This document shows, one piece after another, positions 2-49,651 of a DNA stretch of 64,000 nucleotides (the first letter of the stretch is position 1; every line of letters begins with the position of its first letter). Source of the DNA: Obrimoposthia wandeli (lineage: Eukaryota); assembly GCA_977020255.1 (NCBI GenBank), contig CDROCS010001687.1:62001-126000 (forward strand). Reading direction: 5' to 3'. The notes beneath the pieces are model-generated. The model was not told the origin of the DNA and did no database searches. It saw only the letters and a program-made list of their open reading frames with translations. A program made the translations under genes and the position numbers.

Positions 2-3000
2 AATGGTGGTTTTAAGTTAAATAATAAAAAAGATCAGGACTCAGATAACAAAGGTAGAAAAATCAGATTAAAGCCAACTAAAGTAGCACTGACAGGTACG
101 AATAATGTTAATTTTAGTAAAACGTCTTCGATTAACGCTACTAAACACACTTTCGAAAGCAGAGGTCCTACAGGAACTGCATCACAAATATCCTCTGGCA
201 GCCATAAGTCCACGAAAGCAGATATTAACAAAGGTGTCATTACTCCAAGCATACTTTATCAAAATACTCCATCCAAGTTTGCGTCATTAAGTCCCTTTAA
301 ATCTACAAATAAAAATAAAGAATTAGAAGAAAAATACGCTTCAAAGGTAGTGGCTTCAGAAGAAATTAATCGGAAGCCAAGTGACAAGGAACCTAGTACA
401 ACTGAATTTTACGAATCTCTGTTAAAGAAAACATATTCACAGAAGAACATCAAATTGAAATATCGAACATCCACTATTTCTATAAACCTTTCTAATATCA
501 ATTTAAAGAAGCATTCAAAACGTTTCCCAATCGAGTGGAAATCTCAATCAACAACAGAATCAAACAATTTAATCAAATCGTTGTCATCCAAGGCTAGATA
601 TACAACATCACTGGAACCCGTGACATCATCCTCGTCGCAACCGGAATCAAGAAAGTTGTCTCGAGATACACAATATAACATAGAAGCAACAAAAATTAAT
701 TTCGTAACTAGAAGAAAAAAACCAAAGTTCCTATCAACAAAACCAAGAAGTATTATCAATTCTACGCAACAAACACTGTCAAGATCTCAGCCAATATTCA
801 AACTAGCTCTAAAATCAGATTCAGAAATAAACGAACGTTCAACATCAAAATCATTGGAAACAAAACTAAAATCAGATGCTACAACTAAATCACAATTTAC
901 AACCACACACGGTGCATTAGAAACCACAGTAAAATCACAACCCACACAAGTAGCATTCAATAGACTATCGGAAACTCAGTCGAAAATCAAACTTACTTAT
1001 CCTCCATCAACATATTCATTGAAAGTAGGTAAGCAAACATCAGCCACTGCACCAACATCGCAAACCAGAACAGCATATTCTCCATCAACTTCTCAAGCAT
1101 CAACAACATTACATGTAACCATACAACCTCAATCCTCGAAAATCAGTTCAACATCACGTAAAGAACTTCCAAACCAATCTGTTATTCAAAATAGAGTATT
1201 AGTTCTTCCATCCATATCCCAATACACTATTGCTCAATCGACTTCTGAGTCGACAAGCAAACCTTATGCATCAGACGATTCATCATTATCACATGCTAAC
1301 TCAAAAATATCCTCAACATCTACAAGTTTAATTTCTAAGTCCAGAAAAATGCAAAGTGTTGGTACCACACGATCAACAACCAAATCGACAGCAAAAGAAC
1401 CTGAATCAAAAGCCCCTTCAAAAACACAAATACCGTCAGAACTTTCATCGAAATCTGAAATCTTAAATACACCAACAACGCTTAATATCATATTGAAACC
1501 TCAACCCTTAACAATAGAATCTATATCAAAATCAGAGGCATCAACAATACAATCAACAATAAATGTTTCGTCAAAGCTAAATTCTACAACTTCATCCACA
1601 GATCAAACAACAAAGTCACATAATCCGTCAACATCTCAATCTACTGTTACAAAATCAACATATCATACACCATCGACAAAGGTATTAGGAATGAATCCAA
1701 TACCATCAGATACTCCATCAAACTCAGAATCCTCAACAACACAATCGATACCATCTCCACTTTCATCATCACAACCCTCAACAACACAATCAACACCATC
1801 TACATTACCTTCTTTACAACCATCAACATCACAATCGACACCATCTACTGTATCATTATATCAACCAACAACAACAAAATCAACACGATATATTGGATCA
1901 TCATCACAATCCTCAACAACACAATTGACACCATGTACATTTTCATCGTCACAACCCTTAAATACACAATCAACACCATTTACAGTACCTTCTTTACAAC
2001 CCTCAGCAAAACAATCGTTACCATCTACACTTTCAACATCGCAACCCTCAACAACACATTCAACTTCATATACTGGATCATCAATACAACCCTCAACAAT
2101 ACAATCGATACCATCTACACTTTCAACATCGCAATCATCAGCAACACAATCAACTCCATCTACTGGATCATCATCACAACCCTCAACAACACAATCAACA
2201 TCATCTACTGGATCATCAATACAACCCTCAACAATACAATCGATACCATCTACACATTCAACATCGCAATCATCAGCAACACAATCAACTCCATCTACTG
2301 GATCATCAATACAACCCTCAGCAATACAATCGATCCCATCTACACTTTCATCATCTCAATCATCAATAACACAATCAACTCCATCTACCGTACCTTCATC
2401 TGAACACTCAACAACACAATCAACTCCATCTACTGGATCATCATCACAACCCTCAACAACAAAATCAACATCATCTCCACTTTCATCATCACAACCCTCA
2501 ACAACACAATCAACATCATCTACTGGATCATCAATACAACCCTCAACAATACAATCGATACCATCTACACATTCAACATCTCAATCTTCAACAACACAAT
2601 CAACTCCTTCTACCGTACCTTCTTCTGAACAATCAACAACACAATCAACTCCATCTACTGGATCATCAATACAACCCTCAACAATACAATCGATACCATC
2701 TACACTTTCATCATCTCAATCATCAACAACACAATCAACTCCATCTACCGTACCTTCATCTGAACACTCAACAACACAATCAAATCCATCTACTGGATCA
2801 TCATCACAACCCTCAACAACAAAATCAACATCATCTCCACTTTCATCATCACAAACATCAATATCACAATCGACACCATATACTGGATCATTAATACAAC
2901 CCTCAACAACACAATCGATACCATCTACACTTTCAACATCTCAACCATCAGCAATACAATCAACTCCATCTACCGTACCTTCATCTGAACACTCAACAAC

Positions 3001-4435
3001 AACATTATCAACTCCATCTACTGGATCATCATCACAACCCTCAACAACAAAATCAACATCATCTCCACTTTCATCATCACAAACATCAACAACACAATCA
3101 ACTTCATCTACTGTGTCATCAATTCAACCCTCAACAATACAAGCGATATCATTTACACTTTCAACATTGCAACCCTCAACAACACAATCAACTCCATCTA
3201 CTGGATCATCAATACAACCCTCAACAAAACAAGCGATACCATCTACACTTTCAACATCGCAACCCTCAACAACAGAATCAACTCCATCTACTGGATCATC
3301 AATACAACCCTCAACAACACAATCAACATCATCTACTGGATCATCAATACAACCCTTAACAATACAATCGATATCATATACACTTTCAACATCTCAACCC
3401 TCAACAACACAATCAACTCCATCTACTGGATCATCAATACAACCCTCAACAACACAATCAACATCATCTACTGGATCATCAATACAAACCTCAGCAATAC
3501 AATCGATACCATATTTTAAATCACATATCTCAACAATAGATACAACATCGTCTACAGAATCATCATCTGATCTCCTATCCACACGATCAACACAAGCAAT
3601 ACAAACTAAAGCATTGACATCAACAGCAGTCCTATCAACAAGACAGTCAGCTCCTAGTATTTCATCAAGGCTTCAATTGGATATTTCTTCTGCATATCAA
3701 TCAACAAAAACACAGACAAAGTTTTATATTCCATCAATTTCTAAATTCATTGTTAAGCAATCAACATATAATACACCATCAACAATTGAATTGAAAATAA
3801 ATCCATTAGTATCAAATTCTGAATCAAACTCCCAACTTTCAACACCACAATCAACGAAAACTAAAGTATCTACATATCAATCAACAGAAACACGAACACA
3901 ATCAGATTTTCCATCAACTTCACAATCCACTGGTTCACAATCAATATCTTTTCAGACTGAATTGAAAATAAATCGAATTGCATCACATGATCCATCAGGG
4001 GTGTCTACTCCTACAGCCAAATTTTCGATAACACCAACAACGTTAGGTTCTGTATCGCCAACCCATTCAATAGCTAATAAATTAGCATCAATTTATCCAC
4101 CACCATACACTATTACACAAACCTTATTATCTATCGGATCAACATCAAAATTAAAGACGGCATTTACAAAAGATAAAAAAAAATCAGCTATATCGATAAT
4201 GAAAAAAAAGTTATTTGAAAATTTGACTACATCAAAGATAAATTTATTCTCAATGAAATTTTCAAAACCGACGAAAGCGCCCGATGAATCTGTGTATAAT
4301 ATTTCCGATTCATTATCAAAGGTTCGAAGTACCTGGTCACATTATACTATTACACCCACGATATCTAATAAAGAACTACGATTACAAAGTGATAATTCAA
4401 GATATTCATCAAGTATATCATCATCTTTAATTTAG
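2..4435 (+). CDS. Giant Ser/Thr/Pro-rich mucin-like exon of the host ECM gene, open from the window start (5' end outside the window)
   Basis: The frame of ORF 350-4435 has no stop from nt 2 (NGGFKLNNKKDQDSDNKG...). It contains 15-aa PSTTQSTPSTGSSIQ-type repeats, and a GTAAG donor lies at ~4449, just after the TAG. Confidence 0.85.
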   Translation, partial: NGGFKLNNKKDQDSDNKGRKIRLKPTKVALTGTNNVNFSKTSSINATKHTFESRGPTGTASQISSGSHKSTKADINKGVITPSILYQNTPSKFASLSPFKSTNKNKELEEKYASKVVASEEINRKPSDKEPSTTEFYESLLKKTYSQKNIKLKYRTSTISINLSNINLKKHSKRFPIEWKSQSTTESNNLIKSLSSKARYTTSLEPVTSSSSQPESRKLSRDTQYNIEATKINFVTRRKKPKFLSTKPRSIINSTQQTLSRSQPIFKLALKSDSEINERSTSKSLETKLKSDATTKSQFTTTHGALETTVKSQPTQVAFNRLSETQSKIKLTYPPSTYSLKVGKQTSATAPTSQTRTAYSPSTSQASTTLHVTIQPQSSKISSTSRKELPNQSVIQNRVLVLPSISQYTIAQSTSESTSKPYASDDSSLSHANSKISSTSTSLISKSRKMQSVGTTRSTTKSTAKEPESKAPSKTQIPSELSSKSEILNTPTTLNIILKPQPLTIESISKSEASTIQSTINVSSKLNSTTSSTDQTTKSHNPSTSQSTVTKSTYHTPSTKVLGMNPIPSDTPSNSESSTTQSIPSPLSSSQPSTTQSTPSTLPSLQPSTSQSTPSTVSLYQPTTTKSTRYIGSSSQSSTTQLTPCTFSSSQPLNTQSTPFTVPSLQPSAKQSLPSTLSTSQPSTTHSTSYTGSSIQPSTIQSIPSTLSTSQSSATQSTPSTGSSSQPSTTQSTSSTGSSIQPSTIQSIPSTHSTSQSSATQSTPSTGSSIQPSAIQSIPSTLSSSQSSITQSTPSTVPSSEHSTTQSTPSTGSSSQPSTTKSTSSPLSSSQPSTTQSTSSTGSSIQPSTIQSIPSTHSTSQSSTTQSTPSTVPSSEQSTTQSTPSTGSSIQPSTIQSIPSTLSSSQSSTTQSTPSTVPSSEHSTTQSNPSTGSSSQPSTTKSTSSPLSSSQTSISQSTPYTGSLIQPSTTQSIPSTLSTSQPSAIQSTPSTVPSSEHSTTTLSTPSTGSSSQPSTTKSTSSPLSSSQTSTTQSTSSTVSSIQPSTIQAISFTLSTLQPSTTQSTPSTGSSIQPSTKQAIPSTLSTSQPSTTESTPSTGSSIQPSTTQSTSSTGSSIQPLTIQSISYTLSTSQPSTTQSTPSTGSSIQPSTTQSTSSTGSSIQTSAIQSIPYFKSHISTIDTTSSTESSSDLLSTRSTQAIQTKALTSTAVLSTRQSAPSISSRLQLDISSAYQSTKTQTKFYIPSISKFIVKQSTYNTPSTIELKINPLVSNSESNSQLSTPQSTKTKVSTYQSTETRTQSDFPSTSQSTGSQSISFQTELKINRIASHDPSGVSTPTAKFSITPTTLGSVSPTHSIANKLASIYPPPYTITQTLLSIGSTSKLKTAFTKDKKKSAISIMKKKLFENLTTSKINLFSMKFSKPTKAPDESVYNISDSLSKVRSTWSHYTITPTISNKELRLQSDNSRYSSSISSSLI
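1723..3500 (+). repeat. Coding tandem repeat, 45-bp (15-aa) unit, with a 360-bp higher-order period
   Basis: Units include QPSTTQSTSSTGSSI, QPSTIQSIPSTLSTS and EHSTTQSTPSTGSSS. The lines starting at 2281/2341/2401/2461 recur almost exactly at 2641/2701/2761/2821. Confidence 0.9.
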
Positions 4436-5154: not shown

Positions 5155-5371
5155 GCCAAGGGATTGGCTTATGTTGGCCCGGCCAGGAGATTGGCTTGTG
5201 TTGGCCCGGCCAGGGGATTGGCTTGTGTTGGTCCGGCCAGGGAATTGGCTTATTTTTGGTCTGGCTAGGGGATTGGCTTGTGTTGGTCTGGCTAGGGGAT
5301 TGGCTTGTGTTGGTCTGGCTAGGGGATTGGCTTGTGTTGGTCCGGCCAGGGGATTGACTTATGTTGGCTCG
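5155..5371. repeat. 27-bp minisatellite, 8 copies
   Basis: Consensus gccaggggattggcttgtgttggtccg, directly countable; one unit is 28 bp. Confidence 0.95.
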
Positions 5372-5786: not shown

Positions 5787-8704
5787 AATTTATTTAAACC
5801 AAATAATAGAAAATATTTTTCGTAAATTTTAGAATAAAATAAATAAAGCAGCTTAATTAATCTCATTTGTGATGACAAAGTGATGTCTATCGACATTAAA
5901 CGTCATTATAATTTACCACATTAACCATCTGTAGATTCATTATTTCTCCTAAACCATTGCACCAATATATTTTTCAATTTAGAATCAATCAAGTCTTTTT
6001 GTCAAACGATGGCATATTATAAATATAAGATGAATAAGTCCCTTCTTAGTTTCAAACTCATTAAAATTGCACTTATAAAATCTTCTATTTAACATCCAAC
6101 ATTTTATAAGGAAAGAAAATATATTAAAATTTAATAGTATTCACTTTGAATGCTAGGCTTTTAACGAACCGGAACAGAAATTATTGTAGGGTCAACAAAT
6201 ATGTGGCTAGGATTTGAGCCATTTTGATAAATAAATATTTTCGAAGATTTATTGGTGTCCTGGACTTTGTTTTATCCTTAAGGAAGCCCCGTAAAAGAAA
6301 ATCTAATGGTAACCTGTGTAATCAGTGCTTGATTAGGCATCTTATAATCGAATCATTTCATATAAAAATCCCAAAGCTATTGATTCGGAGGGTTAATATC
6401 AAAATTTGGATATTTATAATGTTGTAATCTTGGTTACGCCATTTGTCTCAAACTCAAAGTGCAAGCAACGGATCAGATTTCTTTGGATCATGAAAATGTT
6501 GATTTCATTTTATAAAACAGCTCTTCAATTAAATCGCCAGAGAATTATATGGTAATATATTTATTACTGCTCTCATATAACACCTTCAAACAATACAACC
6601 AATTGGAAAAAAAATCAGCAATCATCTACGAATAAAGTTTATTATTTTAATTACTGTTTCCATCTGCAAAACTTACGCATGAATAGTTACACATTATCTG
6701 TGAGTCACAAGTTTGAGACTGGTACAAATAATAAAAGCATTTTTTTATTAAGTACCCCTAAACAAAAATTTATTTACATTTATTTTCCAGCATTGTCAAA
6801 TTTAATAGACAAATTCAAAATTTTAATTAAGACCCACTGAAATTGAACATGTTGTGATATAAATAAAGAAATAAAGTACACATACATATTTATATTAAAT
6901 TAACAGAAAAATGTTCTTAATATTTTTTGTATTCTCTTTTGCTGTTTACTTTCTACCATGCATTGATTTGATCTTTCCTAAGTGTTTCCTATCAGTGTCA
7001 CTATTCCAATAATAAATGACTGAAAATAAGCTGCTGTTTTGTTACAATTTCATGTTTTCGTATATATATTTTTTTATCTTTGAGGAATTGTCAAGGGGAA
7101 TAAGATCTAGTCAAATATCCTTACACTATTATCTCTTAGATATAGCAGCGAACTTGATAATGTTTAAATACATAATTTATTTTAGGATACCCCGATACTA
7201 TCTGTATTAATATGCAAATATCCAAAATTGTCAAGTACTCTAACAAATGAAGGCAAGAATATGGTTATTCTACTATTTATTTTGGGAATTATTGCAGTTC
7301 TTACTAAAATATGACATAAAGAGAAAAATATTAATTTACATATGTTACTACTGATAAAAGAACGACAAACATCTCATTGTTATGTTTGCTAAATTTTCAG
7401 GGAAAAAATATATCAGTAATTTTTAAAACAATAATATGATTATCTTTTATCATAATTAAATGGTGTACCAATAAATTAAAAACAAATAAAGTTTAGGAGA
7501 GCGCATAGATTTGTTATTTCATGATTATTTTATCCAAATATGTGTACGGCAATTTTATAAATTTAATGATTTCCACTTCAGTAAACTTCCCTTGTCAGTT
7601 TTTTAACAATGAAACTAAATCAACTTAACTGATAAAGCTATTTTTATCAATATTTGTAGTATATTTGACTTGTAACAATAACTTAATGCTTTTTAATTGT
7701 AATATATTGTAGGAAAGATTTTCACATCATCAGAAAAACCTTCAGAATCTGCCGGATTTGATCAATCATATTCTTCAACAGTTGGTGCTAAAAGTACGCA
7801 AAGGTTTTTTAATAAAATCTCAACCAGTTCAACAGCTATTGAGAAGGGTTAATATCTTTTACGTTCTGAAAGGTTACTTCCCAGTACACCTGAGAAAACG
7901 AGTTCCTACAAAACTGTAAATTCCTTTAAAAATACGAAACATCCAAATCTTCTACCACCTTCATTCCTTCAATTAGCACCAAATCCATCATACCAAAACC
8001 AAAATGTCAAAGCTTTACAAAAAATACTCTTCAGTAAAGTTCCAATGTCAGTTTTAACAATTAAACTAAATCAACTTTACCGACAAAGCTATTTTTATCA
8101 ATATTTGTAGTATATTTGAGTTGTAACAATAATGTAATGATTTTTAATTGTTTTATATTTTAGGAAAGATTTTCACATCATCAGAAAAACCTTCAGAATC
8201 TGCTGGATTTGATCAATCATATTCTTCAACAGCTGGTGCTAAAAGTACGCAAAGGTTTTTTAATAAACTCTCACCCAGTTCAACAGCTATTGAGAAGGGT
8301 TAATATATTTTACGTTCTGAAAGGTTACTCCCCAGTACACCTGAGAAAACAAGTTCCTACATAACTGTACATTCCATTAAAAAATACGAAAAATTTCTTC
8401 ATTTCTACAATTAGCACCAAATCCATCATACCAAAACCAAAATGTCAAAGCTTTACAAAAAATCCTCTTCAGTAAACTACCCTTGTCAGTTTTTTAACAA
8501 TTAAACTAAATCAACTTAACTGATAAAGCTATTTTTATCAATATTTGTAGTATATTTGACTTGAAACAATAGTTTAATGATTTTTAATTGTTTTATATTT
8601 TAGGAAAGATTTTCACATCATCAGAAAAACCTTCAGAATCTGCCGGATTTGATCAATCATATTCTTCAACAGTTGGTGCTAAAAGTACGCAAAGGTGTTT
8701 TAAT
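5787..8704 (+). repeat. Segmental duplication block A (copy of A', 15977-18457)
   Basis: Offset 10190 with only scattered substitutions over the first ~1.95 kb. It ends at ...aaaggtgttttaat, where A' continues aaag and A continues into the BEL gag remnant. Confidence 0.95.
7713..8704 (+). pseudogene. Three tandem partial copies (~440-450 bp unit: intron tail plus 5' part of exon) of the S/T-rich exon at 18807-19226
   Basis: AG|GAAAGATTTTCACATCATCAG acceptors at 7713, 8164 and 8604. In-frame TAA (aagggttaa) in the first two copies; the third is truncated. Confidence 0.8.
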
Positions 8705-9430
8705 TTTCCTAGTGCTCGTGCTCGTACGGTTACTTCCTGCAATAGTTGGCTATACATATCCAAATCCCGATAGTTGTTCCACCTTATTGACCTGAACTTT
8801 TCCACCTTTTCCATCAACTGTCTATAATTCCTGTCCGTCCCTCCGTATCTTACTGACAATATCTTCAGCGCTTCATCATAGCCTTCTGCTGAGTATCCCA
8901 AGCTATCAATTAACTTTAATGGTTCTCCGTCCACATAGTGCAGTAGATGCAGCATTTTCTCCACTTTATCCACCGATGACTTTGTTAAATATAGCTCGCC
9001 AGTTTTCGTACTTTTGTACTTCTCCTCTAAAAGTTGGGAGCTGAATTTCCTTCATCTGACTTACTCTCTGGTTTCCTTGGCCTATCTTATCATTGAGCTT
9101 ACCTCGCTTCGTGTCCTCTGTCCTTTCCCATACTTTCCCTTGTACTTTGTCGAATTTGTTTTCCATCTTCTTCTGCTCGCTAACCCATCTTTCTTCTTTT
9201 CTGCTGTCATCCTCTTTTTCTTCCAGCAAAAAATTGTTTATTGCAATATTTAAATCACACCTGGTTAGTTCCTTATCCTTAATTCCAGACCTTCCTTTTA
9301 GGCTTAGCATGACGTATATCTTTTCATTACTATAAATGATATCTTCCTTATGCACCTTTTTTCCTTCTCTCTGTAGCCAAAAATGTTCCTCTCTTGGTCC
9401 CCCGCCCTTCACTTTCTCTATCACTACCAC
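8705..9430 (-). mobile_element. BEL/Pao LTR retrotransposon gag remnant (DUF1759-like)
   Basis: QLPTFRGEVQKYENWRAIF, then EKMLHLLHYVDGEPLKLIDSLGYSAEGYDEALKILSVRYG after one frameshift near 8970. Confidence 0.8.
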
Positions 9431-9699
9431 CCCTATACATTTTACTGTTCCCGTTTATCTCTAGCTTTCGTGAGTTCCATAAATCGGAATCTATCCTCAA
9501 TCATCAAAATACGAAAGGGAGGAGGATGTATTTCCTCCTTATCATTTTGTGTCTCTATGCTCCATAACTCCCGCTTATCGCCTGGTTGTTCTAGAGCACA
9601 GGAACTATAAAAAACAAGATTTTTTATTAAATTTAATATTACCAACCCTAACACCAAAATCAAATAAAAGCTCATCACACAAGGCATCACAAAAAGTAC

Positions 9700-10025
9700 C
9701 AGCTGTAAGAGCATCAAATTTCTTCATACATCGAAGAAGATCAATTTCACCACCTGATACAATACCTTCTTCCATTGCAGCTCGAGTAGCATTCAATGCA
9801 TCAGTATACCGGTCCTTCTTCTCATTAACCTCTACTTCTACCTCTACTACTGCCTCCAACTTTAATGACTACAACACCATTGGATAATTTAGCAAGACGC
9901 TCGCTCATTGTCTCCTTTTCGTACTCACTTGTTGAAAGTGAAATTTCATCTTTAATTTGACCGATTCTCTTTTGAATCTCAGCTTCTTCATCTTTGCCTT
10001 TCATAATTAAGGTATCATCTTTTGT
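9700..10025 (-). pseudogene. HSPD1: Intronless fragment of mitochondrial chaperonin HSP60 (cpn60)
   Basis: [10 protein letters not shown]...[27 protein letters not shown] and, after a frameshift, [28 protein letters not shown]...LLRC. These match HSP60 motifs TKDD, SEYEKEKLNERLAKL and [21 protein letters not shown]. Confidence 0.9.
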
Positions 10026-10275
10026 ATGCTGAAGTAACTGAGGAAAGTGTGAGAGAGCCTCATACTTTAAAACATATTGTGTCTGTTCATCTGTTCCTGT
10101 CACAATATTGCCAACTGCTCTCAAGACAGCAGTTTGAACGTCAACATCATTTTGTGACAGTAATGGTACAATAAATCGTACAATATCTGCATCAATGACC
10201 ATTTGAATTTGGTCATTTCCACCATCAGTGAAATAAGATAGGTCCCAAACTGTATCAACTAAAATATAATATATT
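10026..10275 (-). pseudogene. KPNA3: Intronless fragment of importin alpha (KPNA3/4-like ARM repeats)
   Basis: [25 protein letters not shown]...[24 protein letters not shown]...LSHFPQLL matches importin-alpha-3/4 [24 protein letters not shown]...[16 protein letters not shown]. Confidence 0.9.
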
Positions 10276-10945
10276 AAAATATTATCACAAATTCGTCCTT
10301 CATCATCAACAATCATCCCCTGACTTCGTAATTGTTTCAAGGATTTGACACTTTCCCGACTGGAACGACTACGATGCTTCTCTTTTCCTCCACGATTTGG
10401 TTCTTCATCGTGTCCAAGCCCAGGAATTAATTGCAGAAATATTAAATTTTGTGCATCCAAACCAATTTTCTTCCAATGACTTTGGCTAAATCATCTTTGC
10501 ATACACCTTTGATCACTCGAACCCATTGACAGGCTTGTAATTTTTGAAACTCTTAAGCACTTTCATAACATCAGTCATCTCAGTGATGGATACCATCTTC
10601 AAGTTGTGAATCCCACGATACAAGTGACGAATATAATCCTCGGATAAGGCAGACTTAATTAGCAATGGCAAACTTGTATATTGGGCGTGAATGAATTTAT
10701 TCATTAACCTCAGTACTGCATTCTTTTCTTCGCCTCTATTACAAGTCACTTGCCACAAATTAGGGTCTTTGATCCCGATGAGGCACTTTTGCTGAAAAAT
10801 AGCTGATGCCATTGCATCACCAGTTCCGAAGTCATCGGCATCATTTTCTTCACGTCTATTGTCATATTGAAGATGTTGCATCGCATCTATCACTTCAGCT
10901 TCGTCGTAATCATAGTCTTCCTCTTCATCATAACCCCGCTATGCT
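10276..10945 (-). pseudogene. SUPT5H: Intronless, internally deleted fragment of elongation factor SPT5 (acidic N-term, NGN, KOW1)
   Basis: GIKDPNLWQVTCNRGEEKNAVLRLMNKF...IKS...MVSITEMTDVMKV, then after a frameshift [16 protein letters not shown]. These match SPT5 GVKDPNLWTVKCKIGEE, MVPIKEMTDVLKV and WVRLKRGIYKDDIAQV. Confidence 0.85.
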
Positions 10946-12520
10946 ACCAATTTTTTGACACCATAAAACATTGGAGGGCGCATATTAAAATTCAACAATT
11001 CAACAACTTTATTTAAACTTTCTACAATCGATCTCTAAATCAATTTAACATTTTAAATTCTAAATTTAAAAAACTTTACTTTGGTAACATCCACGCCAAC
11101 CATAAATCCATAACTTTACAAAGATAAAATGACATTTTTAAAACAACCTTTTATATTTTTTAAAATTTTAACTTTTATATATATATTTAAAATTTTTATA
11201 TATATTAAACTTTTTTATATATTAAATAATAAGTCGATTCTAAACAGTCAGCCTCCAGCCACTGCCTCCGAAAATAAAATTGTCGCTAAATAGGTGTTTA
11301 AAATTTTGTAAGGGATGAACTGATAATTTATTAATTTAGTTTTTATCAATTGAAAACAATTTAAGTTAAACTAAGACTTTTATTAAGATCTAGATAAACT
11401 GAAAATGTTACCCACATCCGCCATCAAAACTTTGTAATTAAAATATTGGTGGTGTTTATAAATTTGAAGCGAATACATAAAAATCACAAAATAGAAATTT
11501 GGATGTTTTAAAATAAATTCAAATTATGATAATAAAAATTTACTTCAAACTATCTGCTGTACAGCTGTGATCCCTCTCAATGCACGTTGTACGAAAATAC
11601 GATTTCATGAAGAAAATATTATAAAATAGCTTTTAATAAATTGTATTGTATCGATTTGATTTCCTTATGCATTTTTTCAAAAAATCTTCTTCTAACATTT
11701 TCAAACAAATTTAATACAAAATAAACAAAATGCTTAGTGGCACATTTTTGGTAAGAAGAACTGACGATATGAGATGAATTTGGTTAAACACTGGTATAAA
11801 CCTGACTTTTTAAGATTTTATGATTATTGCGTAAAGCTAGCGTCACTGCTACCATAGACAATTTATTAGAACTAGCTTCCGCCGCTTGCCAAACTAACAG
11901 AGCTCTGTAAAAACTTTAAAATATAGCTCTAAGTATCATTATCAAATTGTGTACAAGATGCAATATTTTTAATCAAACTGCATCTGCTATTAATATATAA
12001 AAACAGTCTATGAGAAGGGATGTAATAATACCGGACTAATCGAACCATTTACTGACTTATGCATGTCGAAGTTTCTCTCGGGATAACCGGTATTTGGAGC
12101 TCTGTTGCAGCTGGTAAAGCGAATTAGTAGAAGTACTGCGGATCGAACGTCCTCATAATATTCTTAAACTTAAAAAAAACTCAACATGTGTAATACCAAT
12201 GCCTAGGAGGCCATTTCTGGTAAGCTGAACTGTCGACGATGTGAGATGAACCGTTAATTTAATACACGAAAGTGATGAAAACTGTATATATGTTTTAATT
12301 AAATCACAAAATAATAATGAAAATATTCGACATTTTTTAATTTGGCGTGTTTCATTGTAGCATTACATGAAAATTTATTATAGAATTTCTGGGAATTTTT
12401 CTTAACATAAATAGTGAGTTCTGTAATGTATATTATAGAGCCAGTTAAAATTCCAATTAGTTGAGTAGTATACCGTTTTTACATTACAAAGGTCTCTGAT
12501 AATCATATTTGCCATTTCAG

Positions 12521-12670
12521 GTTCAACATCAGTACCAAACAAAGCTGAAGCAAAAATTATCGCGTGTGCTAAATGCTCTCAGAATGCCATTTGTCAGTTA
12601 GAATCTAATGTGGGTTGCTGTCGCTGTAAATCAGGATTCCATGGCTCTGGATTGTCATGTATCCCCAATA
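12521..12670 (+). CDS. EGF-like exon, phase 1-1 (block B copy)
   Basis: ttcag| ... CAKCSQNAICQLESNVGCCRCKSGFHGSGLSCIPN |gtgag; 150 nt. Confidence 0.85.
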
Positions 12671-12764
12671 GTGAGAACTGTTCTATCAGTCATTATTTCA
12701 AATAACTAAAATATGTCAACTTGATAATAATTATTGTTCACAAAACACCATTGCGGTCGCACAG

Positions 12765-13487
12765 AACGTGAAGTTGAGAAGACATGGAAAGGCCAGCTGC
12801 TCCTGGAGGGCATGGATGCCTCTATGCAGTCAAGCTTCAACTATCGGATCTTGTACCGCCAGTATCCGAGTAGCAATGGGAAGATCCAGCATGCAGTGTT
12901 TCTGGAGCTCGGAAGTATCGGGCCACTGCCTGGCGCTAGCGGGCAACGACTGACTCACTTGCTGTTAGGACTAACCCCGCTGTATGACGTGCCTGTGGTG
13001 TTGCTAGCACCGCGCACGGGAATGCTATCCAGATCTGCGGGTGTCATCACTGTGCGACTGCAGCTGCGTGTCGGCAGTCGCCACGATCTGCAGTTGCAGA
13101 TGACCATGTGGGACGGTGACAACGACACTGAGGGTGGCCTCAATGCCACCCTGGTCGGCGTTCCAGGCTGGTTAGCAGCAGAGTCAGTTCCGCTCGATGA
13201 GAGAGTGCTTGAGCAGTTCCAAATGCGCCCCCAGTACTCGGTGTCATACACGGTGCAGGGTCGGAGCGTTGAGTTCCCGTACGGTGAGAATGTTGGGAGA
13301 GGAGTGCAGAGTGTCAGTTTCATTGGTGAGGCACAGCTGAGCGAGTGCAGTGAGCTGCAAGCTCCGCAACGGCTGAGAGTGCGCCCACAGGAAAGCATGC
13401 TCGAGTGCAACAACCGGTGCAATGCAAATGGCAGCATTTGTCACCCTTATTGTCAGAGCTCACCGGAGGATGTCACTGTTGAGTTCA
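12765..13487 (+). CDS. GC-rich exon encoding a nidogen G2F-like beta-barrel domain plus a 4-Cys tail (intact copy)
   Basis: cacag|aa cgt gaa... to ...ttc a|gtgagt; phase 1-1, 723 nt, open frame. Its pattern (KGQLLL...LTPLY..P.vlLA...G.lsrsaG...LNATLVG.P...Pl.E..l.qf) resembles G2F. Confidence 0.6.
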
Positions 13488-15976
13488 GTGAGTGTGATCT
13501 CCCGTCTGTTAAGATAAATATTCGACCAAATCCAATTACCCATTCACAACTATTAGTTTATCGTAAGAAATCATGAGCCACGATAGTTCAGTGGTCCAAT
13601 GCATGACTTGTAAGTAGTGAGACCTGCAGTTAAATTTCCATTCGTAACGACTAACTTTCTCCCGGATCTAATACAAACAAGCCTGACTGACACTATAAGA
13701 CTGACCAGAACCTCTTTAACAGGGACAGTTTCTCCAGATTGAGATTATTTTGATATTATGCTTGTCTGGAGTCAAAATAATAGTTTTTCAATTTAAACCA
13801 ATGATGCCCAACATGGTCTATGTGAATCACTTGTAGTTCACACAGATTTTCGACTGGTTCATAGCTATATTTATATAATGAAAGAATATTTATAAAATTA
13901 TATTTCTCCCAAATTATAAGGAGTTTAATTAAACATTTATTTTATTAAATATAAACTTTTAAATTTAATGTTCTTGGATTTTAATTCCAAAATATGTTAA
14001 ATAGTAAAAAATAAAATTATTCTTTATTTCTTTTCAATCTCGTTTAAATATTTGTTTTCATAATGAATGTTACGTACTATTTTTGATAAATTTTGGATTT
14101 TTTTGTATCTTATTTGTTATCCACGGTTTAAAAAAGAGAAAAACTGATTTAAATGACAAATATGGACTGAAAAATTGAAAAAAAATGTCTACATCTCTTA
14201 TACAATTAATTTATTATAACTACTATCATTACGCAAACTTTTTTGTGAAGTCACTTTCCTTGTTAAAAACTGGCAATACATATTGAATACATAATATAAT
14301 TTTGTAACTTTGAGTCTTTGCTTGATTGGATGTTGTGTAAGTTCCTACATGTTTGAAGTCCTGATGTTTATGTAATGACTGAAGATTTTTGATCGAACAC
14401 AATAAATAGCAGTGTATACTGTATTAATGCGCATATTTTGACGCCACTTCTTCAATTTAGTTCTTCGAACATCACATTTCTCTCCTACATGTTTTTGTGA
14501 ATGCTAACCCACTTTATATGCGTAAATTTAATTCGGCTGGAATAAAAATTATCATCACATAAAATTTTTGTAACATTTTCTATTGAGATTTTATTATAAA
14601 TTAAATATGATAAATTTAAGCTTGGTGGGTTTTTCAACGATTGTTTGTGGGTTATCACATTTAGCCCCAAGCAAGAATATTTTGCAACCTGCTTTGAGCA
14701 CTTTCGTTTACAGAAATTTGTCTTTTGAACATCGAGTCTATTGTACTATTCTGCCATTGAGAGAAGTTCTTCAGATTCAAAAAATATGATCGGCATGTTG
14801 ACATGTAGATAAGATAAGAAAACTTGTCCCTACATCAATCCCACTAACCTGTATGCCTCTCTATACCTCTTCATTTCTCCCCAGAGGTATGTGAAACCCG
14901 GTAAAGAAACACTGATATAACAGTTTTCAGTTTTAATACAAAATCATCAAATGCATCAATTTTATGAGTACGATCAAATGTACTTAAACATTCCTTCAAT
15001 AAAAGAAAATTATTTTAAAATGACACTAAACAAACGTGGATCTCAGTTGAAATATTTAAAATCAGTCATGACATAGAATGAAAATGTCTGTCAGTAGACA
15101 ATGCACCAAAAACAACTTAAATATACAATACATTTAGAAGCTTTGATTAGAAGTTGTCAACTTTGAATTAATAAGTGTAAAAATTGATAGCAACACGTTT
15201 CCTAATTACTTTACACTGGAAATTGGATTTAAAACAGGTCAGTAGTTTGAAAGATTTCTGTAATGTCGGACAAAGTTTTGAGCATTTTGCATTGTTTAAG
15301 TGAACAGTAAAGTATAATATTTGTAATTTAAAGTGATAGTTTACTTTTATCAAGATTGTAAATCTAACTCCAAATGAAAAAATATTTTGAAAATTACATG
15401 TCTGAGACGTTGCTGTCAGATTTTTACAAAATTATATTTAAAATTATATATTGCTTATATTAAAAATATTAAAAGATAGAGAAAATAGTTAATCAATACT
15501 ACATAAAGTTATAGACAAAGTTTATTACATAGAAAACACACAATAAAAATATAGACTACATGATACTAACGTACAAGTAAATGAATATATATATATATAC
15601 ACCCAATTCTCTTTTTACACGTTTTTTACATGGTTTTCTAATAAGAAAACTGTATTTTTTCGTTTTTGCATGTTTTTTTGTTTTACAAGGTTTTGTTGCA
15701 CAGTTTTTTCTATTTTACATGTTTTTTTTGCACATTTTTTACTTGCTTTCAATCATTCAGAAAAGATCTTCAATAAATACATGCGTAAATCATTCTAGTT
15801 AAATGGAAACTATAGGCCAAAATACACACACAATTATCTTGTTTTTCTTACAATTATCTTAGAAGGGATAAATATTTATTTTACCAACATCTCTCCAACT
15901 ATATTAGAGATAGTAAACGTACCACTCAGTGCAGGTTATTCTGACAATTCTATGAAGTTGAAATTCACACAGAATT

Positions 15977-18457
15977 AATTTATTTAAACCAAATAATAGA
16001 AAATATTTTTCGTAAATTTTAGAATAAAATAAATAAAGCAGCTTAATTAATCTCATTTGTGATGACAAAGTGATGTCGATCGACATTAAACGTCATTATA
16101 ATTTACCACATTAACCATCTGTAGATTCATTATTTCTCCTAAACCATTGCACCAATATATTTTTCAATTTAGAATCAATCAAGTCTTTTTGTCAAACGAT
16201 GGCATATTATAAATATAAGATGAATAAGTCCCTTCTTAGTTTCAAACTCATTAAAATTGCACTTATAAAATCTTCTATTTAACATCCAACATTTTATAAG
16301 GAAAGAAAATATATTAAAATTTAATAGTATTCACTTTGAATGCTAGGCTTTTAACGAACCGGAACAGAAATTATTGTAGGGTCAACAAATATGTGGCTAG
16401 GATTTGAGCCATTTTGATAAATAAATATATTCGAAGATTTATTGGTGTCCTGGACTTTGTTTTATCCTTAAGGAAGCACCGTAAAAGAAAATCTAATGGT
16501 AACCTGTGTAATCAGTGCTTGATTAGGCATCTTATAATCGAATCATTTCATATAAAAATCCCAAAGCTATTGATTCGGAGGGTTAATATCAAAATTTGGA
16601 TATTTATAATGTTGTAATCTTGGTTACGCCATTTGTCTCAAACTCAAAGTGCAAGCAACGGATCAGATTTCTTTGGATCATGAAAATGTTGATTTCATTT
16701 TATAAAACAGCTCTTCAATTAAATCGCCAGAGAATTATATGGTAATATATTTATTACTGCTCTCATATAACACCTTCAAACAATACAACCAATTGGAAAA
16801 AAAATCAGCAATCATCTAAGAATAAAGTTTATTATTTTAATTACTGTTTCCATCTGCAAAACTTACGCATGAATAGTTACACATTATCTGTGAGTCACAA
16901 GTTTGAGACTGGTACAAATAATAAAAGCATTTTTTTATTAAGTACCCCTAAACAAAAATTTATTTACATTTATTTTCCAGCATTGTCAAATTTAATAGAC
17001 AAATTCAAAATTTTAATTAAGGCCCACTGAAATTGAACATGTTGTGATATAAATAAAGAAATAAAGTACACATACATATTTATATTAAATTAACAGAAAA
17101 ATGTTCTTAATATTTTTTGTATTCTCTTTTGCTGTTTACTTTCTACCATGCATTGATTTGATCTTTCCTAAGTGTTTCCTATCAGTGTCACTATTCCAAT
17201 AATAAATGACTGAAAATAAGCTGCTGTTTTGTTACAATTTCATGTTTTCGTATATATATTTTTTTATCTTTGAGGAATTGTCAAGGGGAATAAGATCTAG
17301 TCAAATATCCTTACACTATTATCTCTTAGATATAGCAGAGAACTTGATAATGTTTAAATACATAATTTATTTTAGGATACCCCGATACTATCTGTATTAA
17401 TATGCAAATATCCAAAATTGTCAAGTACTCTAACAAATGAAGGCAAGAATATGGTTATTCTACTATTTATTTTGGGAATTATTGCAGTTCTTACTAAAAT
17501 ATGACATAAAGAGAAAAATATTAATTTACATATGTTACTACTGATAAAAGAACGACAAACATCTCATTGTTATGTTTGCTAAATTTTCAGGGAAAAAATA
17601 TATCAGTAATTTTTAAAACAATAATATGATTATCTTTTATCATAATTAAATGGTGTACCAATAAATTAAAAACAAATAAAGTTTAGGAGAGCGCGTAGAT
17701 TTGTTATTTCATGATTATTTTATCCAAATATGTGTACGGCAATTTTATAAATTTAATGATTTCCACTTCAGTAAACTTCCCTTGTCAGTTTTTTAACAAT
17801 GAAACTAAATCAACTTAACTGATAAAGCTATTTTTATCAATATTTGTAGTATATTTGACTTGTAACGATAACTTAATGCTTTTTAATTGTAATATATTGT
17901 AGGAAAGATTTTCACATCATCAGAAAAACCTTCAGAATCTGCCGGAATTAATCAGTCATATTCATCAACAGCTGGTGCTAAAAGTACACAAAGGTTTTTA
18001 AATAAACCCTCAACTAGTTTAACAGCTATCGATAAGGATTCATATCTTTCTAGTTCTGAAAGGTTACTCCCCAGTACACCTGAGAAAACGAGTTCCTACA
18101 AAACTGTACATTCCATTAAAAATTATGAAACATCCAAATCTTCTACCACCTTCATTCCTTCAATTAGCACCAAATCCATCATACCAAAACCAAAATGTCA
18201 AAGCTTTACAAAAAATACACTTCAGTAAACTACCCTTGTCAGTTTTTTAACAATGAAACTAAATCAACTTTACTGATAAAGCTATTTTTATCAATATTTG
18301 TAGTATATTTGACTTGAAACAATAGTTTAATGATTTTTAATTGTTTTATATTTTAGGAAAGATTTTCACATCATCAGAAAAACCTTCAGAATCTGCCGGA
18401 TTTGATCAATCATATTCTTCAACAGTTGGTGCTAAAAGTACGCAAAGGTGTTTTAAT
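15977..18457 (+). repeat. Segmental duplication block A'
   Basis: See block A; includes partial exon copies starting at 17903 and 18357. Confidence 0.95.
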
Positions 18458-18806
18458 AAAGTTTCAATTAGTTTAACAGCTATCGAGAAGGATTCATATC
18501 TTTCAAGTTCTGAAAGGTTACACCCCAGTACACCTGAGAAAACGAGTTCCTACAAAACTATAAATTCCTTTAAAAATACGAAACATCCAAATCTTCTACC
18601 ACCTTTTTCCTTCAATTAGCACTAAATCCATCATACCAAAACCAAAATGTCAAAGCTTTACAAAAAATACACTTCAGTAAAGTTCCAATGTCAGTTTTAA
18701 CAATTAAACTAAATCAACTTTACTGATAAAGCTATTTTTATCAATATATGTAGTATATTTGAGTTGTAACAATAATTTAATGATTTTTAATTGTTTTTTA
18801 TTGCAG

Positions 18807-19226
18807 GAAAGATTTTCACATCATCAGAAAAACCGTCAGAATCTGCCGGAATTAATCAGTCATATTCATCAACAGCTGGTGCTAAAAGTACACAAAGGTT
18901 TTTAAATAAACCCTCAACTAGTTTAACAGCTATCGATAAGGATTCATATCTTTCTAGTTCTGAAAGGTTACTCCCCAGTACACCTGAGAAAACGAGTTCC
19001 TACAAAACTGTACATTCCATTAAAAATTATGAAACATCCAAATCTTCTACCACCTTCATTCCTTCAATTAGCACCAAATCCATCATACCAAAACCAAAGT
19101 TTCAAGACTTTACAAATAATTTTCTGGCTAGTTCAACTAAATCTCTTTCGTGGTTTGGACACTACTCGAGTAAAATATCAACAGAACTAAATTATCATGC
19201 AACGAATTCTGTTTCAGGACCACAAT
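18807..19226 (+). CDS. Ser/Thr-rich exon, the only complete copy of the ~450-bp repeated unit (phase 1-1)
   Basis: ttgcag|ga aag att... to ...cca caa t|gtaag; 420 nt, open frame. Confidence 0.8.
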
Positions 19227-24920: not shown

Positions 24921-25420
24921 GGGGGTCAAGTGGCTTAGACTCCATCCTTCTTTGATATACCACTATGGTCGTCCATAGGTTAAAGGGTCAAGTGGCTTAG
25001 TCTCCACCCTTCTTTTTGAGATATACCACTATGAAAGGGTTAAGTGGCTTAGTCTCCACCCTTCTTTTTGTGATATACCACTATGAAAGGGTCAAGTGGC
25101 TTAGTCTCCACCCTTCTTTTTGAGATATACCACTATGAAAGGGTCAAGTGGCTTAGTCTCCACCCTTCTTTTTGAGATATACCACTATGAAAGGGTCAAG
25201 TGGCTTAGTCTCCACCCTTCTTTTTGTGATATACCACTATGAAAGGGTCAAGTGGCTTAGTCTCCACCCTTCTTTTTTGTGATATACCACTATGAAAGGG
25301 TCAAGTGGCTTATTCTCCACCCTTATTTTTGTGATCTAGTATCCACCCTTCTTTTTGGCTAACCATTAATTCAAAGGGTCAAGTGGCTTAGTCTCCACCC
25401 TTCTTTTTTGTGATCTAGTC
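24921..25420. repeat. Subterminal 52-bp tandem array (~9 units) in the Polinton left arm
   Basis: Unit aaagggtcaagtggcttagtctccacccttctttttgagatataccactatg; its core is the reverse complement of the TIR motif tggagtctaagccacttgaccc. Confidence 0.95.
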
Positions 25421-25690
25421 CATAATGAAAATTTAGGATAAAGTTCACTCTTATCAGTTAAGGAATGTATGACATAATCATACACACACTATTCTATGTG
25501 AAATTTAGACTAAGTTCACTCTTATCAGTTAAGAATGTATTACGTAATCACACACATACTATTCTATGTGAAAATTTAGACTAAAGTTTTTCCTAGGTTT
25601 ACACATCTAAAGAATTATGTTAAAATTTGTATTAAATCAAAAAAAAAATAAGAAAGAAGTCAGAGAAAAATACAAAATTAAACACATTTA

Positions 25691-28600
25691 TTATGTAATT
25701 TCATAATGTCCATAAGCGCGGCTTCTATTTTTCTCGATCCAATAGCGTTTGTCATCTGATGAGCTGAGAGCAGTCTTTTGTATTATGATCGTGTATAGTT
25801 GATGATTTATTGTTCCAAACTTCTTTTGAGGTATAGTATATGCAATACCGTTTTCATACACGTCTAAATATGTTTGATGTACAACCGTTGAACCCTTAAG
25901 ATTTACTCCTTTTGCTTTATTATTTTCAAAGTCATCTTCAAACTTAAGTGAATAACATTTACAAAGTAAGAAAATCCATTCTTTATACATTCGTCCTTCC
26001 GATTCATCTTTAAATAAACCTATTTTACTATTAAATTTATTAGAATATAATGGATCATTCACATTATAATTTGACGTATCTAATAATCCATTTGCAATCA
26101 TTTTTGGTAACAACTGTTTTCTTAAATTAACGTTTTTACATTCCAAAAAGAATGAGTCGGTATCACCGGCAACTATATTAATTGAACAATTGAATAAATT
26201 ACGATATATTTGCAAATCATGATACTGAAGAGTATACATTCGTAATTTGCTAAGATCTAGTACAGCTTGGCCTATATAATTTGGTCGATCGAGACAAATA
26301 AAGTCTTTTCTTAATAAAACAGCTATTAAATTATCATGAATTTCAATTGTTCGTTGAAACATAGGTTTGCTAGTATATGTAATTAATTTTGTAGAACTAG
26401 TGCAGATGCGAAGATTCAATCGTTTCTTAACATTTTCAACGGTCTTTCCATACAAACTAACATTTTTAAGTTTATAAAAATCTTTGTCACATTTATTCGT
26501 TGCTTGTGATCTCATTTCTGAATTATATTCTATATATTCTGCGAATATCTTAGCCTGAGAGAATTTTACTGCTCGATGAATAATTGTTACCACTGCTCCT
26601 AAACTAACATACATCTGCAATAGTCTCCAATGAATAACATAATGACTTTTTGGCGAATGAGTCATTAAAAGTTTTTCAACTTTTTTACCAGGTGGACATT
26701 TCTTTTCTGGAGCTATAGGAAGATCATCTAAAAAGTCATGAAGGTTTTCTGGTATTACCAAGTCTACTTCCATAAAATAACCATATTCAATATGTTCCAT
26801 GTTCACATTTTTCATTTCATGCAATATTTCGTTTAATTTTATATCATCAAGAATCCATTCAAAATCTCCTTTTGGTAAAGGTTGATCAAGAGCCCATCCA
26901 TATAAATTATTAACATATATATATATAAAAGACTTGTTTCTTCATCAGCGACTACATGATGCTTATTGACAAATGTCATTCCTCCTCGTATACCCGAAGA
27001 AATCATGTTGTACATTTCAGGATCCTGCATCAGTTCAACCTTATGTTTTAACATTTTTAGAGCACTTGCCCAACTCAATCCAGGAATGCTAAAAAAGTTA
27101 AGTGGTTCTAAACCATCTTCACTGAGAGCTTTTCTTCTGAATGTTTGAAACACGTCAGCTAATAAATATACGTCAGTCTTTAAGTAAACTAACATATAAT
27201 CCAACATATTTCTACAATTGGTTATTTTCCAAACATCTTGTGCTTTTTGATATTCAGTGTCTGTGATTTTATCATTCCATTTTACTGGTAAACTTAACTT
27301 ATTCTGGAGGACATTTAATGATGTAGCAAAATCATATGGGAATATTCCTTTGCCATCAATAAGTTTAGATGGAAAAACTGATCTTGTTAATGGAATAGTT
27401 GGTAATTTACCGGCTAAATTTTCCAAAGATGATTGCAAAAATTGCAAAGAATCTATAAATCTCAGAGTTATTTGACCTAATCTTACAATCATGGCTTGAA
27501 ACTTTTCCGTTGATTGTGGTATAATATTTATATCCCAGTCAGTAAATTTATTCAATGCATGTTTTAAAATATGATGTAAATCATAACCTCTGAGATTATG
27601 AAACACAATAGGTAAAGTTGGACGAAGTTTTCTTGATAAATTACATTCATTGCATGCAGGACCTAGATACTTGCCAGTAAAGTGATCATGATCTTTAACA
27701 TATTTTTCAGATGATTCGTGACATAAATAACATTCATCGGCATTGCTAAAAGTATGAATCTCTGCATTTGTTAAGGGAATCATTACGTTTTTAAGAGCAT
27801 CTAAATACCATGACAAAACCTTTTCTTTAGCCAAGTTCTCTATTGACTGAAGAAATTTAACTATGCAGTCATCACCAACATTATATTGATACTGGGTTTC
27901 AATTTCATCTGTACTCATAAATAACATACCAGATGCGACAGGCATATGCTTTTGATGATAACTCTCATCTGGTACTAATACAGATTCAAAATCAGCGTAA
28001 ACGACATATTTCGGCGATATAGTTTTTGACCAATCGTTGAATTTAACGTACTTATTCTTAGGCATAGTATACATTGTAGTGCTTTCTTGATTATAGTCAC
28101 ATAAAACTTTATGCTTTTCTAATGACAAATCGGTTTTGAAACCATGTAAACACTTTTCACACCATTTTCTGCTAATTCTAGTCGTTCCAGTTCGAATATT
28201 TAATAGCCGGTTAAGACAACTTATTCCTATATAATGAAACCGTTCCTTGGATTCTAGTAACAATAAATTAACTATAGTTCCTTCCTTCATTTTTGATTTG
28301 TATGCAACATCGATATAAGGATTCTTGATAACATCAGTTTTTGATTCTTTTTCACTTACCTCGTTGAATATGAATACATTTATTATTATACCAGGAATTT
28401 GCCGTTCAAATTTTGATATATTTGATATTTTCATAGGCATATCTTCGGAATTATATACAAAATCATTTAAAAATCTTTCATAGTTGCTTGGTCTATTTCT
28501 ATGTGAGTCTATTTCATTATATTTAAGTATTGACAATATTGCATAAATAAAGCAAAGATTATCAGAGTTTAGAATATTTATGACTGCTTTAGATTTTGTA

Positions 28601-28965: not shown

Positions 28966-29014
28966 TGAATAACTATTTTCTAATGATGTTTTAGTATGTA
29001 TATTATCATTTATT

Positions 29015-29317: not shown

Positions 29318-29418
29318 CTGATGATATGATTGATTTGATTGGACTTGAGATATTGGTTGATTTGTATACTGAATAAAAAAATATATATAAATACAATAAT
29401 TTAATTATTTTACTTACA

Positions 29419-30687: not shown

Positions 30688-30688
30688 A

Positions 30689-47421: not shown

Positions 47422-49651
47422 GTAAATATTCATTGGTTTTCAATAACAACAACATTAATATATTTAATAAAACGCTAATATCAATTAAACATATAATTTG
47501 TTATTCAAACTGCTTTATGTTTTACAAGGTAATAATTTAGAAATGGTAAACTCTTCAACTGACTTCTGAATTTTACATTATTACAATTTTTTATTCATCT
47601 GTAGATTTTTTAAAAATTCGGAGCATAAATTTTAAATATTTGATCACTCTGTTTGTTATGTGATATATATTTTTAAACCAATTTAATTGATCATCGTTGC
47701 TTCTAAAATACACCTTATACCATGCTCGAGAAGATCGTATAAATATTTGAGCTTCTAATGGCTCTTTAATGAATTGAATTCAATCCTTTCCTTGATCAGG
47801 AGACAATGTAGCTTCATTAAGCGTTCACTTGCTCTAACCATTTTCTTTAATTTGAATATTATTCTGGCTGCTTTGTTAATTCATTTTAGTAAGTGATTTA
47901 ATTGATAAGCGAACCTCATTATCGGATGGAGACCATTCATTAGTTTAATGGGATTTCATTCGATATTTAGACAATCACGAGGAATTATATATAGTTTGTG
48001 TAATGTTACAAATCTAAAACTGAAAATTTGAATTAACCATGGGTCATTTAAGGTCAGTTTTTTGACATCATAAAACATTGGAGGGCGCATAATAAAATTT
48101 AACAATTCAACAACTTTATTTAAACTTTCTACAATCGATCTCTAAATCAATTTAACATTTTAAATTCTAAATTTAAAAAACTTTACTTTGGTAACATCCA
48201 CTCCAACCATAAATCCATAACTTTACAAAGATAAAATGACATTTTTAAAACAACCTTTTATATTTTTTAAAATTTTAACTTTTATATATATATTTAAAAT
48301 TTTTATATATATTAAACTGTTTTATATATATTAAACTTTTTTATATATTAAATAATAAGTCGATTCTAAACAGTCAGCCTCCAGCCACTGCCTCCGAAAA
48401 TAAAATTGTCGCTAAATAGGTGTTTAAAATTTTGTAAGGGATGAACTGATAATTTATTAATTTAGTTTTTATCAATTGAAAACAATTTAAGTTAAACTAA
48501 GACTTTTATTAAGATCTAGATAAACTGAAAATGTTACCCACATCCGCCATCAAAACTTTGTAATTAAAATATTGGTGGTGTTTATAAATTTGAAGCGAAT
48601 ACATAAAAATCACAAAATAGAAATTTGGATGTTTTAAAATAAATTCAAATTATGATAATAAAAATTTACTTCAAACTATCTGCTGTACAGCTGTGATCCC
48701 TCTCAATGCACGTTGTACGAAAATACGATTTCATGAAGAAAATATTATAAAATAGCTTTTAATAAATTGTATTGTATCGATTTGATTTCCTTATGCATTT
48801 TTTCAAAAAATCTTCTTCTAACATTTTTAAACAAATTTAATACAAAATAAACAAAATGCTTAGTGGCACATTTTTGGTAAGAAGAACTGACGATATGAGA
48901 TGAATTTGGTTAAACACTGGTATAAACCTGACTTTTTAAGATTTTATGATTATTGCGTAAAGCTAGCGTCACTGCTACCATAGACAATTTATTAGAACTA
49001 GCTTCCGCCGCTTGCCAAACAAACAGAGCTCTGTAAAAACTTTAAAATATAGCTTAAAGTATCATTATCAAATTGTGTACAAGATGCAATATTTTTAATC
49101 AAACTGCATCTGCTATTAATATATAAAAACAGTCTATGAGAAGGGATGTAATAATACCGGACTAATCGAACCATTTACTGACTTATGTATGTCGAAGTTT
49201 CTCTCGGGATAACCGGTATTTGGAGCTCAGTTGCAGCTGGTAAAGCGAATTAGTAGAAGTACTGCGGATCGAACGTCCTCATAATATTCTTAAACTTAAA
49301 AAAAACTCAACATGTGATTTAATACCAATGCCTATGAGGCCATTTCTGGTAAGCTGAACTGTCGACGATGTGAGATGAACCGTTAATTTAATACACGAAA
49401 GTGATGAAAACTGTATATATGTTTTAATTAAATCACAAAATAATAATGAAAATATTCGACATTTTTTAATTAGGCGTGTTTCATTGTAGCATTACATGAA
49501 AATTTATTATAGAATTTCTGGGAATTTTTCTTAACATAAATAGGGAGTTCTGTAATGTATATTATATGGAGCCAGTTAAAATTCCAATTAGTTGAGTAGT
49601 ATACCGTTTTTACATTAAAAAGGTCTCTGATAATCATATTTGCCATTTCAG

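Follow-up and report, generated by a model that had tools for sequence, protein, structure and literature searches.

Gene capture by long terminal repeat (LTR) retrotransposons has been described in animals and plants, mostly for elements present once or in few copies. The parts of PMC5131818 (Tan et al. 2016) on which we draw describe LTR-mediated retroposition in animals, including a two-gene chimera, CG4799_CG11924_r, in the Drosophila Pao element BATUMI; they also cite maize Bs1 (three donors, 1-5 copies), which is treated in PMC7264820 as well. Multi-gene captures as covered there are mostly single or few-copy, the relevant section of PMC7264820 puts transduced open reading frames (ORFs) at one to a few copies, and the portion of PMC2774510 used here gives 425 maize elements with gene fragments, none of them with more than one gene under its criteria. 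Here we analyzed a 64,000-nucleotide stretch of Obrimoposthia wandeli (contig CDROCS010001687.1, positions 62,001 to 126,000; hereafter the window), an AT-rich animal sequence in which fragments of SPT5, importin-alpha3/4 (KPNA3/4) and mitochondrial HSP60 form a mosaic ahead of the gag of a BEL/Pao-type retrotransposon. The kind of gene capture is known, but this is an unusually elaborate case: it stands apart by a copy number that appears high, by subfamilies of modular make-up and by an open frame ahead of gag.

As in the chimeras of Tan et al. and in Bs1, partial host-gene pieces in sense orientation lie inside an LTR element and replace element sequence. BATUMI, as presented in PMC5131818, shares with this locus a Pao-type carrier whose interior is replaced by pieces of more than one host gene, as well as further rounds of retrotransposition, but it has two donors, is young and occupies few insertion sites. 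Here, in contrast, there are three known donors and a probable fourth, the mosaic sits between primer site and gag, and diverged copies seem to number in the tens to hundreds and fall into subfamilies that differ in their modules. Bs1 likewise has three host genes stitched inside one LTR retrotransposon; according to the same sources, it is a plant element with one piece out of frame, whereas the element described here is animal, BEL/Pao-type and far more repeated. The planarian Burro/GYPSM1 elements, to judge from the passages of PMC6431247 that concern them, also form an invertebrate LTR family of high copy number in which host-like domains occur within or before the polyprotein, but they are Gypsy elements of more than 30 kb with whole accessory domains, whereas here the LTR is 0.3 kb and the pieces are short fragments of housekeeping genes that look recent. 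Finally, the LTR, primer site, 5-bp target-site duplication (TSD) and DUF1759 gag agree with BEL/Pao elements as outlined in PMC3118150, from which this copy differs in carrying about 1.3 kb of host mosaic in its leader and in being without pol. We found no report of this family or of host messenger RNA (mRNA)/Gag fusions in the open-access literature; the supplements of PMC5131818 may list more multi-gene cases.

The host-gene mosaic is the inside of an LTR retrotransposon, because an LTR, a primer-site motif and, at a duplicated locus, a solo LTR with its TSD are all present. The duplications around the solo LTR are perfect over 5 bp; the same 5-mer has 48 occurrences in the 64,000 window positions. 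Both the 5' LTR and the solo LTR start with TG and end with AA instead of CA, and a single shared substitution would explain the lost CA. The four substitutions between them all fall in the 3' half. A solo LTR formed by recombination would show this pattern, though the numbers are small. We found two matches to the primer-site motif in the window against 0.01 expected, each ahead of a BEL-type gag region. The search pattern was guided by the window sequence, and the match is to a published transfer RNA (tRNA)-Met site; the first 12 bases of the pattern are the tRNA-Met primer-binding site as given in the part of PMC3587641 used here, and the window matches 11 of these 12. The initial annotation, made from the sequence alone, had rightly joined the host-gene pieces to a BEL/Pao gag but had missed the LTR, the primer-site motif and the TSD, as well as the presence of the mosaic in many copies. 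The gag matches DUF1759 (E 9.9e-6; 26.1 bits against a curated cut-off of 25.4), which we take to be specific to BEL/Pao. DUF1759 is listed as a gag domain in the portion of PMC5933816 that we used. A search of viral contigs for relatives of this gag found none.

We found that the SPT5, importin-alpha3/4, HSP60 and gag pieces all lie on the minus strand in one orientation, as initially annotated, and that Pfam and homologue matches bear out these assignments. The SPT5 piece matches Pfam Spt5-NGN (E 4.8e-7) and human SPT5 (E 2.7e-16), the latter match reaching to about 10528; the importin piece matches Arm (E 3.8e-13) with up to 75% identity to importin-alpha3/4; and the HSP60 piece shows 78% identity over its first part, the second part continuing in another frame. 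The rest of the SPT5 piece, 10528-10422, presumably corresponds to the start of KOW1. Since tool searches gave no match for this KOW-like stretch either, little weight attaches to the blanks for the adjoining 46-codon module, which had no match in PDB, Pfam or ESM Atlas; its assignment to SPT5 was rejected for want of a match, with that caveat. Because the module is stop-free (as were 554 of 20,000 shuffles), it is likely to come from a fourth coding donor. The linker ahead of gag had no Pfam match above cut-off, and the 95-base T-rich segment may be element leader or intron remnant. Searches for relatives of the SPT5 piece found none, chimeric proteins were absent among 11 database hits, the best 150 of 4782 and the best 120 of 162 (the last judged from coverage and Pfam columns), and the junction motif had 0 matches in metagenomes.

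Sequencing contigs show that the mosaic belongs to a repeat family with many diverged copies, because every piece is represented by many diverged contigs. The contigs derive from a single sample of a single study, sequenced in four runs that hold 28-38% of the sampled words. No RNA dataset was listed as containing the sequence, a result without bearing on expression. Between 937 and 1851 contigs per run aligned at 80% likeness to 8500-11200, and the details below concern the 32 of 5474 pieces, 24 of 673 loose ends, 40 of 274 substitutions and 12 of 88 indels that were listed. In run X1, a listed variant site was found on 1-3 contigs within SPT5, against 9-17 within importin, 11-17 within HSP60 and 13-46 over most of gag. 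One SPT5 contig reached a depth of 744, whereas the remaining X1 contigs and joints listed had depths of about 20-110. Relative to the array of block A (at least five units in the window), depth in runs X1 and X4 was 3-5x for SPT5, 12-14x for the 46-codon module and its join, 10-15x for the LTR, 34-59x for importin, 13-25x for HSP60 and 76-88x for gag; we used only the order of these values, as summed depth is not a copy number. The SPT5 piece probably exists in tens of copies, and importin and gag in hundreds. At 10422 the depth steps up: the deep SPT5 contig ends there, and the module is 3-4x as deep as the SPT5 piece. Together, these data suggest that importin-HSP60 is an older, more widespread core and that SPT5 marks a small young subfamily; the same depths would result if most lineages had lost SPT5.

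Subfamilies were also evident within HSP60. At 9964, 23 contigs in X1 and 17 in X4 exit HSP60 into about 255 bases of other, mutually diverged sequence; this exit marks a second subfamily with a short HSP60 piece, and one variant omits most of HSP60. The importin/HSP60 join itself had a depth of 9684, compared with about 11,000 for importin, with no loose end there among those listed, and two diverged pieces, contigs 22 and 31, bridge HSP60 across the 95-base segment to the linker.

The joins between the pieces were examined for frame, microhomology and intron sites. An ORF spanning the mosaic, as initially annotated, proved partly correct: the frame is open from 10490 to 9825 and the importin/HSP60 join at QHTKDD lies in frame, but a run of SPT5 up to importin was not confirmed. 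The look-alike join of SPT5 DFLIF and importin LIYH claimed earlier is not supported, as 46 codons without a match intervene and NILIYY fits importin itself. Because NILIYY does so with a 4-codon gap, the join near 10284 is that of the 46-codon module and importin. The score of NILIYY against importin's previous exon was reached by 199 of 93,972 stop-free shuffles, in a test chosen after the data were seen, and by 7 of 2126 AT-rich 18-mers of the window, NILIYY itself included. Among the mosaic joins, microhomology is plausible only between importin and HSP60, where TKD suits HSP60 (22 of 22 TKDD rows) and importin's H-x-K-E/D alike, a 3-residue overlap at the protein level only. Of 111 importin homologue rows (redundant), 46 are ORFs from genomic DNA in which an acceptor-like Q precedes ILVDTVW; by this comparison, the importin piece crosses an intron site that is conserved in animals. 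The crossing of this site, with NILIYY matching the previous exon, favours a spliced template for the importin piece, if the host has that intron.

Features of the element and the duplicated blocks, in window coordinates
Feature	Position	Strand	Remarks
Target-site copy, 5 bp, upstream of 5' LTR	11247..11251	-	same 5-mer flanks solo LTR on both sides
5' LTR	10951..11246	-	296 bp; 292/296 aligned bases equal to solo LTR; multi-copy depth
Primer-binding-site motif, tRNA-Met type	10932..10949	-	adjoins end of 5' LTR
SPT5 fragment	10422..10931	-	acidic N-terminal stretch, NGN domain, putative start of KOW1
46-codon module	10284..10421	-	open in mosaic frame; likely fourth donor; no match; depth step relative to SPT5
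Importin-alpha3/4 (KPNA3/4) fragment	10020..10283	-	about two ARM repeats; 4-codon gap before ILVDTVW
Mitochondrial HSP60 fragment	9700..10025	-	shares TKD (10025-10017) with importin piece; frame broken near 9840
T-rich 95-base segment, GT..AG bounds	9605..9699	-	in this copy, mosaic frame terminates at segment end
Linker	9455..9604	-	probably start of gag; no Pfam hit above cut-off
BEL/Pao-type gag	8705..9454	-	DUF1759; broken near 9450 and 8975; cut off at 8705; highest depth
Deletion breakpoint	8700..8710		gag joined to 451-bp tandem array of block A
Block A, host segment	5787..8704		duplicate of 15977-18907
Block B, host segment with EGF-like exon	11247..15155		duplicate of 48373-52286; EGF_3 hit
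Solo LTR (48058-48372) with both 5-bp target-site copies	48053..48377	-	at duplicated locus

This copy of the element is dead, truncated and decayed. Its mosaic frame breaks near 10540, at 10460-10475 and near 9840, and its SPT5 piece carries two in-frame deletions; other copies differ at all of these positions. Calculated from the listed lengths, the other copies would be in frame there, a result that is firm only near 9840, where nearly all depth in all four runs differs in length. Furthermore, 17 of the 20 listed substitutions in host-derived pieces change a residue, and 8 of 10 residue changes in importin and HSP60 leave the other copies on the conserved residue (by eye, against homologues). 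The frame breaks and substitutions thus look private to this copy. Its mosaic frame stops at 9607; just before the stop, 23-40% of depth differs in length, and some copies may read on beyond it.

Three joins and one gap make four independent in-frame events, for which the naive chance is near 1%. Open-frame variants appear to have been favoured, as upstream start and stop codons would otherwise block translation of Gag; this would require no function of the fragments. Escape from nonsense-mediated decay could provide an alternative form of selection for an open frame, and microhomology between coding sequences may itself be biased towards one frame and so contribute to the in-frame joins.

Self-comparison of the window revealed how this copy came to its present surroundings. 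The stretch 10948-15155 is repeated at 48055-52286, and 5787-8704 at 15977-18907, with 3876 of 3902 aligned bases identical between the copies of block B (99.3%) and 1777 of 1784 identical in the non-tandem part of block A (99.6%). The near identity of both pairs points to a single recent segmental duplication, in which a mucin/EGF-type gene region was copied with the element already inside. In the right copy, the element collapsed to the solo LTR. The left copy lost the 3' part of the element through a deletion that joined the 451-bp array of block A to gag at 8704/8705. A contig of another copy continues with different letters at this breakpoint. The mosaic is therefore older than the join between A and B. 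We rejected a candidate reading of block B as a 4.2-kb Burro-like LTR: host exons lie within the block, and the LTR measures 296 bp.

We hypothesize that the mosaic arose by serial template switching of reverse transcriptase onto spliced host mRNAs, followed by amplification with the element, and we put the probability of this reading at about 0.7. The enzyme would switch from element RNA to co-packaged, abundant spliced mRNAs and back, in several rounds; the captured pieces would replace the leader of the element, and the products would continue transposing. Capture by an LTR retrotransposon through template switching, one of two origins initially proposed, fits because the mosaic lies between the LTR with its primer site and gag, has every piece in sense orientation, and recurs in the genome. 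For capture itself we infer the level of RNA. The other origin proposed at the outset, a single microhomology-templated repair of the break between A and B, has the position of the chimera between two duplicated blocks in its favour. It must be abandoned, and retains next to no probability: the mosaic predates that join, many diverged copies exist, block B ends in an LTR with a TSD, and the join of A to gag is a later deletion within a recent duplication. Misassembly or a contaminant is nearly as improbable. No contig among those listed spans the whole stretch, but the depth bins were covered 30/30 in three runs and 28/30 in the fourth. HSP60 is connected to the linker by diverged contigs, the TSD pattern is consistent throughout, and an assembly error would be unlikely to yield an in-frame join.

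Uptake from unspliced RNA or DNA, by insertion at a host gene, read-through and deletion as in retroviral transduction, would leave intron remnants. Two observations could be read in this way: the T-rich 95-mer with GT..AG bounds right after HSP60, near a conserved intron site, and the 24 bases before ILVDTVW, which are AT-richer than any of 1013 24-mers from the coding pieces. The latter, however, encode importin's own upstream motif (p about 0.002-0.003), and an intron tail is disfavoured for that reason; the T content of the 95-mer is 47, barely above the best other 95-mer (42); and a resumption of HSP60 likeness after the 95-mer was rejected as not significant (95/852). We therefore consider such uptake unlikely. 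Less probable again is a mosaic built first by another agent, be it a fusion of retrocopies made by a long interspersed nuclear element, a Helitron, a Pack-type DNA element or repair, that later joined the BEL leader and was amplified. Differences in modules between subfamilies, as at the 9964 exits, and an LTR depth below that of importin would agree with such a history. Yet reading of the sequence by eye showed neither poly(A) nor a target-site repeat or terminal hairpin at the mosaic ends, and SPT5 starts directly after the primer site and so replaces the leader, as in the cases that PMC5131818 presents in the part used here.

Several points weigh against capture by template switching. All four runs represent one sample, possibly the one used for the assembly itself, and the secondary amplification, read from many diverged contigs per piece, is likewise that of one sample. 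None of the 32 listed pieces (of 5474) bridges the importin/HSP60 or the primer-site/SPT5 join by 31 bases on each side, and the sole listed piece over the join of the 46-codon module and importin (10189-10306) has 22 bases on its short side. Intron loss is judged from the intron sites of other animals rather than from the parental genes of the host, and so would hold only if these agree. The HSP60 piece stops 7 codons short of a phase-1 intron site that is conserved (4 genomic ORFs), and the T-rich segment directly after it may be an intron remnant. In SPT5, the in-frame length differences co-occur in one deep X1 contig only. Finally, this copy is without pol: membership in BEL/Pao, which PMC3118150 in the section used here classifies by pol domains, is read from gag, and the superfamily assignment is accordingly provisional.

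It is tempting to view the leader of this BEL/Pao element as a rolling cassette of host domains (SPT5 NGN, importin-alpha ARM repeats, an HSP60 segment) that is read in one frame, forms an N-terminal extension of Gag, is swapped between subfamilies and is kept by selection, but we regard this as doubtful. If true, the pieces would aid the element in nuclear import, elongation control, folding or disguise from PIWI-interacting RNA silencing, and would resemble viral accessory genes caught during acquisition. With a repeated animal family of three or four donors and subfamilies that differ in their modules, the captures could be ordered, microhomology could be measured at each, and selection on the open frame ahead of gag would become testable. 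In annotation, such a family would be a source of false SPT5, importin-alpha and HSP60 paralogues; it would possibly also be a source of small RNAs against those genes.

The window holds a second, decayed BEL/Pao element at 53650-57106 on the minus strand, with an LTR candidate of about 350 bp, an unrelated gag and a weak Peptidase_A17 match. It carries the same tRNA-Met primer-site motif at 56738-56755, and no captured genes were seen in its leader.

Within block B, a GC-richer ORF of 281 codons (12731-13573, plus strand) recurs at 49862-50705, where it is frame-shifted; it had no Pfam match and no usable ESM Atlas match. In the tandem arrays of 451-454 bp at 7572-8704 and 17764-19120, the unit has a Ser/Thr/Lys-rich frame and may represent an exon that was repeated together with an intron. 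An open, mucin-like frame of 1477 codons, Ser/Thr-rich and built on 45-bp repeats, occupies 2-4432 on the plus strand, and EGF, EB and immunoglobulin-like exons lie at 12469, 19259, 47277, 58092 and 58706. This mucin-like frame and these exons suggest one large host gene around the elements.

Other mobile sequence was also present. A Maverick/Polinton-like cluster at 25691-33301 contains PolB-like ORFs (by eye), an A32-type ATPase, a chromodomain integrase and capsid-like ORFs. Gypsy-type pol fragments (RNase H, integrase) and a DDE_1 transposase fragment lie at 33664-35493 on the plus strand and 43896-44522 on the minus strand, and minisatellites of 52 bp and 27 bp lie at 24982-25584 and 5155-5367.

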